From positions 77,501 to 141,500 of the IMG/VR virus record IMGVR_UViG_3300049020_000031: 64,000 nucleotides of DNA. One strand, 5' to 3'. Below, piece by piece: positions 4,465 through 62,593 of the stretch. Origin of the DNA: a virus. Numbering within the stretch: position 1 is the stretch's first letter; every line of letters starts with the position of its first letter. A program made the translations under genes and the position numbers. The notes beneath the pieces were generated by a model, which saw only the letters and a program-made list of their open reading frames with translations, was not told where the DNA came from and made no database searches.

Positions 4465-4992
4465 TCACACCTTGACTGGTTTTGGAGCGGCCGGTGCGAT
4501 CAGTAGGGTAATTTCCCTACCGCCGTCACTGGCTGGTTTTTCCATTTTGATATCACCGAGTTCGGCAATGAAATCACGGATTACTACATGACCCAACTCT
4601 TTATTCGCCACTTCACGACCTCGGAAGCGCAGAACAACCTTGACCTTGTCACCTTCAGCTAGGAATTCCTTCGCTTTTCGCGCCTTGATCTTGAGATCGT
4701 TTGTATCGATACTCACGCGAAGCTGGACTTCTTTGATGACGACCATGGCTTCGCGTTGTTTCTTTTCTGCCGCCTTTTGTTGCTTTTTCTGTTCGTAGAA
4801 GAACTTATTAGCATCCACCACCCGGCAAACTGGTGGATTCGCATCCGCGATCTTAACCAGATCAAGATCCAAATTCTTGGCATACGCCAAAGCAGATCTG
4901 AGATCCATGATTCCCTTTTGTTCATTGTTCTCATCGAGAACTCTGACGTTATATGCACGAATGCGTTCGTTTACTTCCGACTTAAAAGTCAC
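4465..4992 (-). CDS. infC: Translation initiation factor IF-3
   Basis: NERIR..VRV, LDLVKI...PPVCR, KEVQLR..ID.NDL..K and GDKVKVVLRFRGRE motifs. Confidence 0.95.
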   Translation of the reverse strand: MTFKSEVNERIRAYNVRVLDENNEQKGIMDLRSALAYAKNLDLDLVKIADANPPVCRVVDANKFFYEQKKQQKAAEKKQREAMVVIKEVQLRVSIDTNDLKIKARKAKEFLAEGDKVKVVLRFRGREVANKELGHVVIRDFIAELGDIKMEKPASDGGREITLLIAPAAPKPVKV

Positions 4993-5003
4993 AAAGACTA
5001 TCC

Positions 5004-6260
5004 TTAAAGAGCGATTGTTTTAATTGCATCGCCATAGATGACTGTTGGCTCTTCATCATTGGCAAATGTTTCCTTGGTCACGATAACCTTCGTTGCACCG
5101 GCTTCACGGTAGTCAATAAGGTTGAACTGCGTTTTGATCAATTTGTTTTCGATCACGCTACGAAGTCCCCGAGCGCCTGTTTTACGGTCTTTGGCGATTC
5201 TTGCGACTTCTTCCAAGGCGCCATCTTCAAATACCAGTTCCACTCCTTCAATTGAGAAGAGCTTCACGAATTGCTTTATAACTGCATTCTTTGGTTCTGT
5301 CAACACACGCACTAGTTGAGCTGCTGTAAGTTCTTCCAATGGTGCAGATACGGGCAAACGACCAATAAGTTCCGGGATGATACCAAATTGGATCAAGTGT
5401 TCAGGTTTGGCATGACGAAGCAAATCATCAATCGGCTTTGACTTGTCCATGACCTTGGAATTGAATCCCAAGCCCGCGTCTTTATTCAAACTCTTCTCAA
5501 CAACTTTGTCGAGGCCCACGAATGCACCACCAACGATGAACAGAATATTACGAGTATTGATTTTCACCAGATCAGCCTGTGGGCTCTTTTTCCCGCCAGC
5601 TGATGGAACCATGATGTCCGAGCCTTCGAGAATTTTCAACAGAGCTTGTTGAACGCCTTCACCAGACACGTCCTTGTTACCACCGCCACCCTCTTTCTTC
5701 TGCTTCTTGTCGATTTCATCCAGATAGATGATACCGCGTTCTGCCTTGGAAACATCACCACCAGCATTTTGGAGCAGTTTTGATACGATGCTTTCAACGT
5801 CATCGCCAACATATCCAGCTTCAGTCAATGAAGTGGCATCAGCAATTACGAATGGAACATCCAGATATCTGGCGATCGTTTGGGCGATGAGAGTTTTGCC
5901 ACTACCCGTGGGGCCGAAAATCAGAATGTTACTCTTCTCGATTTCAACTCCATCTACAACTGGATGGGCCAGTCTCTTGTAGTGATTGCTTACTGCGACG
6001 CTGACTACCATCTTGGTATAGTCTTGGCCGATAATGTATTGGTCTAGAAATTCTTTGATTTTTGTAGGATTGGGAATTGCTTCGTGTTCTTGAGGTTCTT
6101 CTTGTGGCTTATCCAAAGGAGATTCTGTGGACAAGATTGAGTGACACAAGCCCACACACTCATCACAAATGTAGACATTTGGACCAGCGATGAGCTTCTT
6201 AACTTCATTTGCACTTTTGCTGCAAAAGGAGCAATAAAGTTTCTTTTCTGTTTCTGACAT
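5004..6260 (-). CDS. clpX: ATP-dependent Clp protease ATP-binding subunit ClpX
   Basis: N-terminal zinc finger CSFC..ICDECV, GPTGSGKT, ADATSLTEAGYVGDDVE, DVSGEGVQQALLK, LGF loop, GARGLR. Confidence 0.97.
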   Translation of the reverse strand: MSETEKKLYCSFCSKSANEVKKLIAGPNVYICDECVGLCHSILSTESPLDKPQEEPQEHEAIPNPTKIKEFLDQYIIGQDYTKMVVSVAVSNHYKRLAHPVVDGVEIEKSNILIFGPTGSGKTLIAQTIARYLDVPFVIADATSLTEAGYVGDDVESIVSKLLQNAGGDVSKAERGIIYLDEIDKKQKKEGGGGNKDVSGEGVQQALLKILEGSDIMVPSAGGKKSPQADLVKINTRNILFIVGGAFVGLDKVVEKSLNKDAGLGFNSKVMDKSKPIDDLLRHAKPEHLIQFGIIPELIGRLPVSAPLEELTAAQLVRVLTEPKNAVIKQFVKLFSIEGVELVFEDGALEEVARIAKDRKTGARGLRSVIENKLIKTQFNLIDYREAGATKVIVTKETFANDEEPTVIYGDAIKTIAL

Positions 6261-56556: not shown

Positions 56557-57573
56557 TTACCTACGTATCAAACCAGCTTTATAACTTTCGCCCGGGAATA
56601 TGCTTAAGACTTGTCTGCGATTGGTGCCAGTTCTGTTGTAACTGAGGTGGAACCATGGTCGGTTACCCAGATACTCCAGAATGAACTGATCGTACATCAC
56701 ATTGTCACGAACCCATTTAGCTCGTTCCCACATCATGTCACTCAGTTTGTTACCACCACCCTGATCGGTAAATTGAACATCACATGCCTTTCCTTCCTCG
56801 TGCTGAGAACGGCCATTCTGTTGTGTTCTGAACCCACTAGTGAGAATCATCTTCCCTCTACCACCAACATGAGCAGCGAGTGGCTCCAAGGTATTGACAC
56901 AAAGAGCGCGCAAGTTGCAGATGATTTCATCTCTCTTTAAACCACGCTGAGCGACAACTTTGTTTCTGGAGATTGCAGTATTGGTAGACACATCGGACAA
57001 TTTGAAGCTGGGACTCAGCTGCATGGCTTCCTTTTGTGCCGCATACTCAGCTTCCACGTTTTCGCAACCCACTGGGGCTGGGGTCTTGGGAGGCGGCTCC
57101 TTGGGATCTTCCTCAACTACTGGTGGTTTTCCACCAACCAGTTTATCGTTTTTTCGTTGATCGGGTTCACTCAATGGCGTGGGTTTTGGATCTCGCAATA
57201 CATGCCCCAAGTAGTTCGTAGGCTCATCACGCAGCCCACCAAGGTCACGTTCGTTGTATTTGAATAACTGTGCATCCTGGCTCCAATAAACCGACAGTGG
57301 GGCTGGCGCTGGGTCATTACCCACGTACCGATCAGGACTACCGCTTATGATGATGGACCCGCAGTTTGATCTGTCACCAATACGAGCATCCTGGAATCCA
57401 TTTGATGAATGATGGGATGCACCGGCAATGATGGGATTGGTGCCATGGATAGGACATGACACTAGATCGCCGATTCGTGCATTCCCGAACCCGTTAGTCA
57501 GGGTGTCTGGACTACAAGTAATCACGAACCCACCGTGTGAAGTGGGGTCGCCCAATCTGGCTTTTGCTGGCAT
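56557..57573 (-). CDS. PAAR-repeat spike protein fused to peptidase M15 (Zn D-Ala-D-Ala peptidase-like) domain
   Basis: ARLGD.TSHGG, ARIGD.V.CP.HG, ARIGD...CG; C-terminal TSGFR...SQH..G.ACD, DQFILE, WFHLSY. Confidence 0.85.
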   Translation of the reverse strand: MPAKARLGDPTSHGGFVITCSPDTLTNGFGNARIGDLVSCPIHGTNPIIAGASHHSSNGFQDARIGDRSNCGSIIISGSPDRYVGNDPAPAPLSVYWSQDAQLFKYNERDLGGLRDEPTNYLGHVLRDPKPTPLSEPDQRKNDKLVGGKPPVVEEDPKEPPPKTPAPVGCENVEAEYAAQKEAMQLSPSFKLSDVSTNTAISRNKVVAQRGLKRDEIICNLRALCVNTLEPLAAHVGGRGKMILTSGFRTQQNGRSQHEEGKACDVQFTDQGGGNKLSDMMWERAKWVRDNVMYDQFILEYLGNRPWFHLSYNRTGTNRRQVLSIFPGESYKAGLIRR

Positions 57574-58414: not shown

Positions 58415-59422
58415 TTAGAAATCCAGATCGGAATCAAAAGATACATCACCACCAATTCCAACCGCATATTCGGATACCGTGCGCTCGAAGAAGTTAGTCA
58501 GTGATTGCATGTCTTGCAATTCCATGAAAGAGAACGGATTCTGGGTATTGAACTTCTTACCCATACCCAATCTGGTGTAACGGATGTCAGCGATGAATTC
58601 CAAGTATTCACGCATTTGCTTCTTGTTGAAGCCTGGCATGCCTTTACTCAGTACGTCTTCTGCAAATTGTTCTTCACAATCAATAGCTTCGTTGATCATC
58701 TGTTCGATTTCATCTTCCAAACTAGCATCCCACAGATCAGGATATTCACTACGAATGGTATCAACCACATCGAAAGCAAAGTTCATGTGCAAGGATTCGT
58801 CACGGAACACCCAATTGGTGCCTGATGCCAAACCGTGCAGAAGTCCACGACTACGCAGATAGTAGACATACGCAAATGCTGCGAAGAAGAACATACCTTC
58901 AATAACTGCCGCGAACGCGATCAGGTTCAAGAGGAACTTTCTACGATCTTCGTTGGTACGGCATTCGTCCATGTCAACCACGGTATCAATCCACTTAAAG
59001 CAGAAGTCAGCCTTCTTCTTGATGCTTGGAATGTTGTTGATGGCATCAAACGCTTCAGCACGTTCTTGTGGGTCCTTGATGTATTCGTCAAGCAACGTCA
59101 GGTAGAACTGAACGTGTAGTTGTTCTTCAAACAACTGACGGCCGTAATACATTCTGGCTTCTGGAGAGTTGACATGCTTGTAAAGACTCAGAACCAGATT
59201 GTTACCCACGATGGTGTCGCCAGTGGCGAAGAACGCAACCAATCTGCTGATCAGATGTTGCTCCGCGGGGGTGATTTTATCTCTGAGATCAGCTACGTCG
59301 GTGTTGAAACTCACTTCTTGAACTGACCAATTGTTCTGTTGAGAATCCACAAACGCCTGAAAAAATTGTGGATATTTCATTGGTCTTAAAGTGAGGTGAA
59401 ACCCGGGATCCAAAATTGCCAT
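58415..59422 (-). CDS. nrdB: Ribonucleotide reductase class Ia beta subunit
   Basis: LRPMKYP, W...EV, FFATGD.IV, E.LH..FY, EGMFFF, RDESLH, NFFER.V.EY. Confidence 0.96.
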   Translation of the reverse strand: MAILDPGFHLTLRPMKYPQFFQAFVDSQQNNWSVQEVSFNTDVADLRDKITPAEQHLISRLVAFFATGDTIVGNNLVLSLYKHVNSPEARMYYGRQLFEEQLHVQFYLTLLDEYIKDPQERAEAFDAINNIPSIKKKADFCFKWIDTVVDMDECRTNEDRRKFLLNLIAFAAVIEGMFFFAAFAYVYYLRSRGLLHGLASGTNWVFRDESLHMNFAFDVVDTIRSEYPDLWDASLEDEIEQMINEAIDCEEQFAEDVLSKGMPGFNKKQMREYLEFIADIRYTRLGMGKKFNTQNPFSFMELQDMQSLTNFFERTVSEYAVGIGGDVSFDSDLDF

Positions 59423-59511: not shown

Positions 59512-59970
59512 TTAGTCGTCCGTGGAGTCCAATACTTCACTGTATTCACCCACTACATTGATATCAAAATCAATTGTGGGTAGATGATCGATCGTGAAGT
59601 CCGGTCCCACATCATAACTCAATGAGATATGTGGTTTGTATTCGTCATAGTCATATGAAGCTCCCAGTGCCATAGCTTCATTGAATCGAATCAAAAAGTA
59701 AGGACTGAAAAACTTCAAGACTAGAGTTCTCCCTGATGGAGTATCCCAGATTTCCAAGTGACAATTTGATGCTGGGATCAAAACGTCAATTGTGTGAATG
59801 GGTTCCATCTCAACTGGAGCTCTCGAATACACGATAGTGGTGTGTAGGCTAGATCTCGCCACCGAATTGGGAATCTTGTTCCCAATCAGATATTCTTCAA
59901 TGCGCTGCGTGGTCTCGTCGCTGAAGAAGGCTGCAAGGTACAACCCTTGTTGAGTTGTACTTTCGATCAT
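59512..59970 (-). CDS. acb1: 2H phosphoesterase, Acb1/T4 gp57B-like (anti-CBASS nuclease)
   Basis: GLY.A..FS..T, LHTTIVYSR and DY..YKPHISLSY (two HxT/S motifs). Confidence 0.8.
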   Translation of the reverse strand: MIESTTQQGLYLAAFFSDETTQRIEEYLIGNKIPNSVARSSLHTTIVYSRAPVEMEPIHTIDVLIPASNCHLEIWDTPSGRTLVLKFFSPYFLIRFNEAMALGASYDYDEYKPHISLSYDVGPDFTIDHLPTIDFDINVVGEYSEVLDSTDD

Positions 59971-61199
59971 TGGCAGCTTTCACAGACTTCTGGTTCTGGT
60001 GGATTAGCATCCAGTGTTGCCGAGCTGGTTGTGACTTTGTTGATCTTAGTCTTGGAACGACCACGCAGGTAGTAGGACGTCTTCAAGCCTTTCTCCCATG
60101 CCAACATATACATGGAACTCAGAACTGAGATTCGCTTCTCTTCTGGGAACTTGTTGAGATCCAGGAAGAAGTTCAGAGATTGGCTTTGATCGATATACGG
60201 ACCACGTGCGGCAGCATGTTCGATAACCTTCTTCTGTGAAATTTCCCAAACAGTCTTGTAGAGTTCGTAAAACTCAGCAGGCAGATCTGGAACTGTTTCC
60301 AGTGAACCTTCACTGGTGATAAGTTGATTCTGCGTCGTCGCATCCCAACGACCAATCTTCTTCAGATCAGCAACCAAGTATTTGTTGATGACGACAAATT
60401 CACCACTCAGTGTTTCTCTCTTGATCAGATTGCTCTTCTGCGCTTCGATGCATTCCTCAGCAGCCGTGATAGAAGCAATCGTGGCAGTTGGTGCAATGGC
60501 AATCAGCAAGCTGTTGCGCAGACCATACTTCTTGATGTCTTCCTTGAGTGCATCCCAACGAGCTACATCTTGAGGGACAACACCCGCGAGATCAAACTGC
60601 AGAAGACCCTTTGCCGCATGAGTGTATTCGAAGTCACGGTGAGCTCCGTTTTCTTTTGCCAACTCCATGCTGGTTTGTAGAGCTTGGAAGTAAATTTCTT
60701 CCTGAACTTGAGCTGACAAGGCAATCGCTGCATCGGACTCAAAAGGCAGACGCAATTGGAAAAACAGATCTTGCAGACCCATCAAACCCAGTCCGATTGG
60801 ACGCAGGCGATTGTTACTTGCCTTGGCTTCCTGAATCGGATAGAAGTTACGATCGATGACTCGATCCAAATACTTCACAGCCACTGCCACATTTCTGTGG
60901 AGCTTTGCCACATCCAGCTTGCCATTCTTCACATATCCGCGAGCAAGGTTGATAGACCCCAGGTTACAAACTGCGGTCTCACCACCGATGATTGCCTCGA
61001 ACATGTTCTTCTCAGTGTTGAAGGCAACGATGTTGATGCTGTGATCGATATAATCCTGAGGAGTCAATGCTGCCAATTGCTTTACGGTGAAGTATGCATA
61101 CTTGCCACCATGAGTGGGCTCCAGGATTTCAGTGCACAGATTGGAAAGGTGAACTACGTGATCGTGTGCTTCGATGTTGATGATTTTCTTAATTTTCAT
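59967..61199 (-). CDS. nrdA: Ribonucleotide reductase alpha subunit, C-terminal fragment
   Basis: HLSNLCTEI (catalytic N/C/E), ETAVCNLGSINL, RPIGLG, RNS...AIAPTA, IDQSQS.N, GLKTSYYLR, terminal CESCQ. Confidence 0.95.
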   Translation of the reverse strand: MKIKKIINIEAHDHVVHLSNLCTEILEPTHGGKYAYFTVKQLAALTPQDYIDHSINIVAFNTEKNMFEAIIGGETAVCNLGSINLARGYVKNGKLDVAKLHRNVAVAVKYLDRVIDRNFYPIQEAKASNNRLRPIGLGLMGLQDLFFQLRLPFESDAAIALSAQVQEEIYFQALQTSMELAKENGAHRDFEYTHAAKGLLQFDLAGVVPQDVARWDALKEDIKKYGLRNSLLIAIAPTATIASITAAEECIEAQKSNLIKRETLSGEFVVINKYLVADLKKIGRWDATTQNQLITSEGSLETVPDLPAEFYELYKTVWEISQKKVIEHAAARGPYIDQSQSLNFFLDLNKFPEEKRISVLSSMYMLAWEKGLKTSYYLRGRSKTKINKVTTSSATLDANPPEPEVCESCQ

Positions 61200-61216
61200 T
61201 TTCTTATTCTTTTCGT

Positions 61217-62593
61217 TTACAGGTCCAACAGATCATCATCTTGTGTCAGATCACGGATCGCAACCATACCACGTTGAGTATTCATCAAGACGTCACCATC
61301 CGTGAACACCATAGTCTTGTCGTTTTCCAGTGTGATATGGAACTTTTCGGGAACAGAAACTGCGCTGTTGCAACGCTTGTTACTCGCATCCTTCCAACAC
61401 ATCCAACCATTACCTGTCTCAGCCAATGTTCTCATCATACGGCCATAGATCTTGGCAGCTGGTGCTTGAACAGAGAACTTACCTTCTGCTTCCAGTTCCA
61501 AGTAGCGAGCGTTATAGGCATCACCAAACAGGTCGGTGAGTTCCGGGGCGATAGCTGGGTCGAACATGGACCATACGCCACCTTCTTTGACACGTTGCAT
61601 GAACAAGTCAGGAATCCAGTTAGCGATGTTCAGGTTGTAGGCTCGCTTTTCCTTTTCACCCACGTTGTCACGGAGTTCCAAGAAGTCCATGATATCTGGG
61701 TGGTGGGTCTCCAGATAAACACAGGCTGCACCCTTTCTCTTACCGCCTTGGTTAACGGCCGCAACGCTTCCGCTTAAAGTGTGCAACCAAGGAACGATAC
61801 CGTTCGACTTGCCATTAGTACCCTTGATCAACGAACCGGATGAACGGATTCTTGATGCAGACACGCCGATACCACCAGCAAACTTGGACATCAATGCGAT
61901 ATCCTGATAACGCTTGTAAATGTCCTTGAGGTCATCCATAGACGAATCCAGGAGATAGCACGAACTCATTTGGCTGTGATTGGTAGCAGAGTTGAACAAT
62001 GTTGGAGTTGACGTCATGTATTCCAATGAAGACACCAAATTGTAGAATTCAACCACGTCTTGCGCATTGTCAGCCAAACCCACAGCAACTCGCATCAGAA
62101 AATACTGAGGAGTTTCAATGACTGCACGGCTTGTGGGATGCTTCAACAGATATCGATCGTACAATGTACGGACGCCAAAGTATTCAAAATAGTCGTCACG
62201 TTCCGTCTTCACGGCTGCGTTCAGTTTCCGCTTGTTATCCATTACCAGCTTGTATGCTTCTGGGCTGATGAGGCCTTGATCGAAGCCAACTTGGATACTT
62301 TGGCTGAAGCTGTGAATTTCTTGGTTTGCCACTTCTTTGTTGATGAATTCAACTTGGAGACGAGCAGCACCACGGCTATAGACTGGATCTTCCTTGATAA
62401 AACCAACTGCGGTTTGGATGCTCAACAGAGACAATTCTCTGGTCGTAACGCCGTCATATAGACCACCGATTGTTTTGATTGCGATCTTTGTGGGATCAAA
62501 GTCAACCAAACCATCACAAACGCGAGTCACACTGTTGACGATTTTGTCTAGATTTACTGGCTCTAGACTACCATTGCTTTTCGTTACTTTCAT
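61217..62593 (-). CDS. nrdA: Ribonucleotide reductase alpha subunit, N-terminal fragment (with ATP cone)
   Basis: VTKSNG..E ATP cone, DRYLL, ETPQ...MRVA, TPTLFN, SSCYL, GGIG, NQGGKRKGA, ETG. Confidence 0.95.
   Translation of the reverse strand: MKVTKSNGSLEPVNLDKIVNSVTRVCDGLVDFDPTKIAIKTIGGLYDGVTTRELSLLSIQTAVGFIKEDPVYSRGAARLQVEFINKEVANQEIHSFSQSIQVGFDQGLISPEAYKLVMDNKRKLNAAVKTERDDYFEYFGVRTLYDRYLLKHPTSRAVIETPQYFLMRVAVGLADNAQDVVEFYNLVSSLEYMTSTPTLFNSATNHSQMSSCYLLDSSMDDLKDIYKRYQDIALMSKFAGGIGVSASRIRSSGSLIKGTNGKSNGIVPWLHTLSGSVAAVNQGGKRKGAACVYLETHHPDIMDFLELRDNVGEKEKRAYNLNIANWIPDLFMQRVKEGGVWSMFDPAIAPELTDLFGDAYNARYLELEAEGKFSVQAPAAKIYGRMMRTLAETGNGWMCWKDASNKRCNSAVSVPEKFHITLENDKTMVFTDGDVLMNTQRGMVAIRDLTQDDDLLDL

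Follow-up and report, generated by a model that had tools for sequence, protein, structure and literature searches.

How can a phage obtain a ribonucleotide reductase (RNR) from a large-subunit gene that is divided in two by what appears to be part of a split intein, with none of the residues on which splicing depends? The question is raised by a giant phage represented by IMG/VR virus record IMGVR_UViG_3300049020_000031, of which positions 77,501 to 141,500 were analyzed; this stretch of 64,000 nucleotides, referred to here as the window, forms the terminal 64 kb of a contig of 141.5 kb with a completeness rating of 33%. The phage encodes the class Ia RNR large subunit, NrdA, as two proteins, and an insert of 200 nt spans the point at which the gene is divided. 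We regard it as reasonably probable that this insert is the non-catalytic middle of an NrdA-type split intein and that it docks the two NrdA chains to each other.

Organization of the nrdA gene pair

The two genes are defined by the list of open reading frames (ORFs) and by Pfam matches. The first, the nrdA N-gene (61217–62593, minus strand; 458 aa; PF03477, PF00317, and positions 1–200 of PF02867), codes for the ATP-cone, the all-alpha domain, and the first 200 positions of the RNR barrel, followed by a 46-residue tail and a stop codon. The second, the nrdA C-gene (59967–61199, minus strand; 410 aa), begins with a 14-residue head and continues with barrel positions 201–523, the thiyl-radical motif, the redox Cys, the Tyr-Tyr pair, and the C-terminal Cys pair. 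The break coincides exactly with Pfam RNR-barrel position 200/201: positions 1–200 of Ribonuc_red_lgC correspond to N-gene residues 210–410 and positions 201–523 to C-gene residues 11–378, and 48 N-gene residues and 10 C-gene residues are left unmatched by Pfam. Taken together, the two chains have, by Pfam, all three domains of a class Ia RNR alpha subunit (ATP-cone, all-alpha, and barrel), and their translations show the catalytic residues Cys, Asn, and Glu as well as the Tyr-Tyr and C-terminal Cys pairs. When compared to the contiguous NrdA of the closest relative, the N-gene is 81% identical (residues 1–413) and the C-gene 77% identical (residues 409–812).

The N-gene ends with TAA, which is followed by a 17-nt spacer (61200–61216) and then the ATG of the C-gene, and the stop-to-start distance of 20 nt puts the two genes in different frames. 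The stop codon and the A-rich spacer, which provide the leader of the C-gene, occupy 61200–61219 on the minus strand, and the leader is like that preceding the N-gene start, being purine-rich and followed by ATGAAA. There is no ORF in the 17-nt spacer, and hence no homing endonuclease gene between the nrdA halves. An earlier note on this DNA had described nrdA as two genes in different frames, 17 nt apart, with no endonuclease between them, and the ORF list and the sequence agree with that description. Ribosomal bypassing or frameshifting that would fuse the two halves was considered and dropped, as the spacer is without matched take-off and landing codons, and an Rfam scan of the insert for an intron or other RNA returned only sub-threshold noise.

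The metagenomic source of the contig invites the suspicion that the division arose in assembly, as an artefact or chimera, but this is scarcely credible. The break is no mere frameshift, involving 200 nt of distinct sequence, and an independent Logan assembly of SRR35217136 (a 5.6-kb contig) has genes of the same 458 and 410 aa separated by the same 17 nt; the assembly frameshift that the earlier note had raised is therefore unlikely.

Borders of the insert

The borders of the insert are defined by comparison with 80 related loci taken from viral contigs, 12 of which are readable through the nrdA break site. In 12 of 12, including the closest relative (locus L014, whose 424-kb phage genome is complete and has terminal repeats), nrdA is a single uninterrupted gene, and the window therefore carries an insertion. 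The native sequence extends to N-gene residue 412 and resumes at C-gene residue 15; the three native residues between them, Asn-Gly-Ser (9 nt), are replaced by the 46-residue tail, stop codon, spacer, and 14-residue head. The insert is exactly 200 nt long, at 61158–61357, the same coordinates that had been proposed from the sequence alone, and none of the 12 relatives has it. The loop that holds it varies in length among the relatives, and the insert has a G+C content of 0.35–0.41 vs ~0.47 in the flanks. A blastn comparison of the locus with phages gave no match, and neither the rest of the contig nor five records of related phages contain a second copy of the insert or the tail. We also note a terminator-like hairpin at the left junction of the insert (61362–61376, minus strand), in which the stem is composed of native nrdA codons and the T-run comes from the insert; it was dropped as a candidate feature, the number of hairpins in the region not being above chance.

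Ancestry of the 46-residue tail

The tail (61220–61357, minus strand), which corresponds to the C-terminal half of an N-intein, is predicted to contain beta3, the block B strand, and the second-lobe globular part of this fragment. It has a net charge of −6, and the alignment of the relatives together with this charge bears out the earlier claim that the N-gene ends in 46 acidic, non-RNR residues. Among the nrdA loci that were fetched, L034 is a genuine split-intein locus, with the intein at the canonical site between Leu and Cys and with the endonuclease gene absent. Its N-intein served as a query, which yielded 42 NrdA proteins with that intein (P0108–P0149); six more complete loci (L135–L140) were also collected.

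Comparisons with these sequences lend good support to homology between the tail and the final ~45 residues of the NrdA-type split-intein N-fragment. A hidden Markov model (HMM) built from 35 NrdA N-inteins matches the tail with 8.0 bits in the last third of the model, reaching the model end, and this score was attained by 2 of 5000 shuffles and by 0 of 9094 natural 46-residue windows from phage ORFs. Smith-Waterman comparisons of the tail to seven NrdA loci gave z scores of 7.2, 6.8, 5.9, 4.5, 4.3, 2.7, and 2.0; the register is constant across all seven N-inteins, and the C-termini and stop codons coincide. In hhalign the tail matches six N-intein halves with P = 2.2e-4 and 35% identity over 37 columns. 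Overall the match spans 37–41 residues, and the tail is only ~35% identical to any sampled N-intein. The language-model neighbors of residues 411–458 are viral Intein_splicing, Hint_2, and PT-HINT clusters with scores of 0.75–0.86, which are rated as leads only, and when the tail is modeled by itself with AlphaFold 2 (AF2), four strands are predicted at the positions expected from the alignment, with a core pLDDT of ~83. The earlier proposal that the tail is an intein remnant is upheld in its essential part by the HMM, pairwise, and hhalign comparisons, but NrdA-type split inteins score better than gp41-1, the example that had been given.

The 14-residue head

The head (61158–61199, minus strand) may be what is left of beta6, the first strand of a C-intein. 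The C-gene start is basic, as had been noted earlier, with a net charge of +1 in the head and three Lys among its first five residues. A set of 39 gp41-1-type loci was assembled by a DNA pattern scan, and the gp41-1 sequence that the earlier note had given proved letter-perfect when compared to PDB 6QAZ residues 49–128. The head matches the first 13 residues of the gp41-1-type IntC with z = 4.7 and p = 4e-4 (Met fixed). Moreover, the tail and head are collinear with the end of the gp41-1-type IntN and the start of IntC, with a score of 50 (p = 2e-4, Met fixed) that is reached by only 2 of 10,111 natural windows, both of them true inteins, and they align to gp41-1 residues ~41–101, across the natural split site. 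A language-model look-up of the head region returned RNR only. The head comes immediately behind the remnant of the N-intein, and from this position it may plausibly derive from a C-intein, for which its resemblance to gp41-1 is suggestive at best.

Loss of splicing

The loss of splicing is certain. The tail aligns from N-intein position ~54 to the end, and the first ~53 residues, which include block A and Cys1, are missing. Block B is degenerate (61292–61306, minus strand), reading Phe-Thr-Asp-Gly-Asp vs Cys-Thr-Pro-Glu-His in the NrdA split inteins; the Thr survives, but Asp stands in place of the catalytic His, in a motif that is invariant in six aligned NrdA N-inteins. On the other side, the natural NrdA C-inteins have 33–37 residues, end in His-Asn, and are followed by Cys. 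Here the last ~20 C-intein residues, with blocks F/G and the terminal His-Asn, are missing, and the 14-residue head runs straight into native RNR sequence, in which the first residue is Val, giving no +1 nucleophile. Splicing is impossible because there is no N-terminal nucleophile, block B His, blocks F/G, terminal Asn, or +1 nucleophile. The absence of block A, the block B His, and blocks F/G had been recognized earlier and is confirmed by the N-intein and C-intein alignments. It follows that NrdA must assemble from two unjoined chains.

A different outcome would be that no enzyme is assembled at all, nrdA being a young pseudogene that was killed by aberrant homing, and the phage using the host RNR or another enzyme from the two thirds of its genome that lie outside the contig. 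The insert is known from a single phage, and with a contig that is 33% complete other RNRs could exist elsewhere. We nonetheless find this improbable, as 868 codons are open and include all the catalytic motifs at 77–81% identity to the closest relative, nrdB is intact, and the C-gene has a proper start and leader. The tail, too, has diverged so far from known N-inteins and yet remains open, which points to a period of selection, unless its donor belongs to a lineage that has not been sampled.

A proposed clasp between the NrdA chains

We propose that the insert comprises the last 46 residues of an N-intein, a stop codon, and a short leader, to which the initial strand of a C-intein is probably to be added, and that the two NrdA chains would be transcribed together and associate non-covalently. 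The strand map (beta3, beta4, second lobe, and beta6) is taken from the gp41-1 structure in PDB 6QAZ, and by alignment the parts that are predicted to be kept are beta3, the block B strand, the globular part of the second unit, and beta6. The gp41-1 intein is built of two pseudo-symmetric units, with beta3 and beta6 forming an antiparallel 'charge zipper' that is proposed to start the association of the fragments, in accord with the capture-and-collapse model (Beyer et al., bioRxiv 10.1101/546465). Because beta3 and beta6 are antiparallel, the tail start and the head end would lie side by side, as an insertion into a three-residue loop requires. The remnant would then dock the two chains and help to close the RNR barrel, and the 17-nt spacing and shared leader type may couple their expression. 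By analogy with gp41-1, such a clasp function is plausible.

A number of observations weigh against this proposal. Searches of the whole genes, the tail, and the head against Pfam and NCBIfam (E up to 10) found no intein or HINT family, and PF14890, TIGR01445, and PF13403 gave no candidates when run against the whole contig. A phmmer search of the tail against PDB returned one irrelevant match (E = 0.54), the tail region, when used to search a word index of 5.8 billion proteins, retrieved only the protein itself, and tblastn of the tail against 50,697 phage records (E up to 10) returned nothing. The sole match in an exhaustive phmmer search of 1.84 billion representatives is a cadherin-like repeat protein, with 43% identity over 23 residues; it was judged spurious because its E-value stems from seven copies of a 23-residue hairpin motif. 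Structural comparisons of the AF2 tail model with Foldseek (PDB and BFVD) and VIA-align wide list generic four-strand meanders and no HINT entry, so that the fold search, suggested earlier as a check for HINT similarity, did not recover it from the tail alone. The insert is a singleton, found in one phage, and covariation and conservation are unusable. As for the head, comparison with the NrdA-type C-inteins, the tail's own family, is not significant (p 0.5–0.9), and its resemblance to gp41-1 over 13 residues might have arisen by chance or convergence; the earlier reading of the head as a C-intein start is thus suggestive at best for gp41-1-type inteins and is not upheld for those of the NrdA type. 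Finally, one other class Ia RNR with a two-chain NrdA has been studied, that of Aeromonas phage Aeh1 (nrdA-a/mobE/nrdA-b; Friedrich 2007; Crona et al. 2011); its NrdA pieces bind each other without their tails, and a clasp may be unnecessary (PMC3045599).

If the silence of the curated HMMs and of the fold searches is taken at face value, the appendages could be unrelated foreign or de novo sequence, like the Aeh1 tails, and the intein resemblance a convergence of beta-hairpins. The best match in the exhaustive phmmer search, with its similar hairpin motif, is in keeping with this, and so is the modest result with the profile of an unrelated family of 105 atypically split inteins, which places the tail at the block B register with p = 0.07 by shuffles and 0.009 by natural windows. 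This explanation is very unlikely, however, given that the N-intein match extends over 37–41 residues with the same C-terminus and in the same host gene, and scores above every natural control window. The PF14890 matches of the genuine NrdA N-inteins are themselves recorded as 'weak', 'faint', or not at all, and silence of the models on a truncated and diverged tail is therefore to be expected.

A closer competitor accepts the intein ancestry and denies its use: the insert would be an intein-derived scar, the barrel halves assembling through their own large interface, and the appendages either neutral or serving alpha2 dimerization or holoenzyme formation as in Aeh1. The weak intein ancestry of the head fits this explanation, but we think it unlikely, as the segments that have been retained are those that pair across the split in gp41-1 (10.1101/546465), and the acidic tail is complementary in charge to the Lys-rich start of the head. 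Docking of the two chains by the remnant remains the explanation that we prefer.

Insertion site, split-intein loci, and a possible origin

The native active-site motif Ser-Asn-Leu-Cys-Thr-Glu-Ile (61125–61145, minus strand) contains the canonical NrdA intein insertion point, between Leu and Cys (Dassa et al. 2009, PMC2677866), which is also the site used in L034 and L135–L140. This point is 21 nt (7 codons) downstream of the right junction of the insert, and as the insert is 7 codons upstream, Asn-Leu-Cys-Thr-Glu is wholly in the second chain. The NrdA split-intein loci are varied in what is found between the two nrdA halves. Three are endonuclease-free (L034, 3989–6933; L138, 3001–5741; L139, 3001–5864), with gaps of 86 nt and 47 nt and a 7-nt overlap, respectively; there are GIY-YIG genes in L135 and L137, and other ORFs of 300–315 aa in L136 and L140. 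The intein-bearing nrdA genes are ~40% identical to nrdA of the window phage.

The origin that makes the fewest assumptions, though a speculative one, is that one aberrant homing or repair event copied only the center of a donor cassette. GIY-YIG endonucleases such as I-TevI cut some 20–30 nt from their insertion site. A break 20–30 nt upstream of the insertion site that was repaired from the cassette center could have produced the present structure in one step, the endonuclease gene being either absent from the donor, as in L034, L138, and L139, or lost later. With only ~40% identity, such a donor would be a poor template for ordinary homologous repair.

Several other inteins were encountered among the loci and phages compared. 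Locus L025 has a contiguous intein at another nrdA site (about 4820–6100), with a Cys start and a His-Asn end; its +1 residue is apparently Gly, in a native Gly-Gly-Lys-Arg-Lys-Gly loop, and not Cys, Ser, or Thr, which is odd. Locus L091 (479–2076), from the 301-kb phage of record G003, has a Vsr-like endonuclease ORF (479–1447) followed by a 210-aa ORF (1444–2076), the first ~136 residues of which belong to an intein that is split atypically, so that everything from block B to the terminal His-Asn is in the C-fragment; it has 105 homologues in the protein collection, all with PF14890, and these are the family used for the profile described above. G003, a more distant jumbo phage, has matches to TIGR01445, the intein N-terminal model, at four places, in helicase-like genes and elsewhere, and there are none in the closest relative (G001; complete, 424 kb).

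Neighboring genes

The intact small-subunit gene nrdB (58415–59422, minus strand; 335 aa) matches PF00268 with E = 1e-81. Between it and the nrdA C-gene is a gene for Acb1, an anti-CBASS phosphodiesterase (59512–59970, minus strand; 152 aa; PF23474, E = 3e-37), the start of which overlaps the nrdA stop. Nearby, a 338-aa protein (56557–57573, minus strand) carries a PAAR motif (PF05488) in its N-terminal part, and its long C-terminal extension matches no family.

Comparison with known systems

The closest likeness by ancestry is to the NrdA-type phage split inteins of 'fractured genes' (PMC2677866), which share the host gene, the arrangement as two adjacent nrdA genes, and an N-fragment that ends in an acidic stretch. 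They differ in that they carry Cys1, Thr-x-x-His, blocks F/G, His-Asn, and the +1 Cys, and presumably trans-splice; moreover, they are located directly before the radical Cys, whereas the window insert is 7 codons upstream and cannot splice. The gp41-1 intein (PDB 6QAZ) is more remote, being a fully active helicase intein, and the tail is nearer to the NrdA-type N-inteins. Full-text searches of the literature gave no natural non-splicing intein remnant that is used as a clasp.

The MobA/MobE elements provide a second comparison, in which extension peptides are kept after 'hit and run' loss of an endonuclease (T4 gp39/gp60; Manning & Atkins, bioRxiv 10.1101/2022.08.31.505936). There, too, a split gene retains its extensions though the endonuclease is gone; the host gene and the element are different, however, the window has no bypass cassette, and the extensions are not linked to inteins in that paper. 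More broadly, it is possible, though we advance it tentatively, that the 'capture' module of split inteins is a natural, transferable heterodimerization domain, which one aberrant homing event could place at a new site where no nucleophile is required, giving at once a two-chain enzyme that assembles itself, and that it offers endonuclease and intein cassettes a general rescue, without splicing, from the fragmentation of their host genes, which might also explain the tails of Aeh1 NrdA and T4 gp39/gp60.

Aeh1 NrdA is the one biochemically studied case in which a split gene is rescued by short tails; the tails are essential for the split NrdA, though not for formation of the heterodimer (PMC3045599), and a degenerate split-intein origin of such tails was already speculated upon by Crona et al. 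2011 (PMC3045599). The tracing of the window tail to a defined part of a split intein, without its catalytic elements, makes that 15-year-old speculation testable. If docking is true, intein fragments can be domesticated as pure protein-protein clasps, homing elements could be understood to colonize sites without a splice-competent residue, and the 46- and 14-residue appendages would constitute a very small natural heterodimerization pair for protein engineering. That the insert lies off the canonical point, 21 nt upstream of it, hints that imprecise homing may create new gene architectures.

The earlier note had contrasted the locus with both splicing split inteins and Aeh1, and the contrast holds for the site, the endonuclease, and the dead residues, but not for the idea of a degenerate intein, which Crona et al. 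had anticipated. In both phages class Ia NrdA consists of two chains, whose C- and N-terminal tails are not native and are opposite in charge, and in Aeh1 function is restored without RNA or protein splicing. The differences are in the details of the break: Aeh1 NrdA is split after the equivalents of Cys439 and Glu441, in the interval from the radical Cys to the equivalent of the redox Cys462 (PMC3045599), and the window NrdA 7 residues before the equivalent of Asn437; Aeh1 retains the HNH endonuclease gene mobE, and there is none between the window halves; and the polarity is reversed, with a basic tail and an acidic head in Aeh1. Lastly, the Aeh1 tails are without a database match, whereas the homology of the window tail to an intein can be demonstrated.

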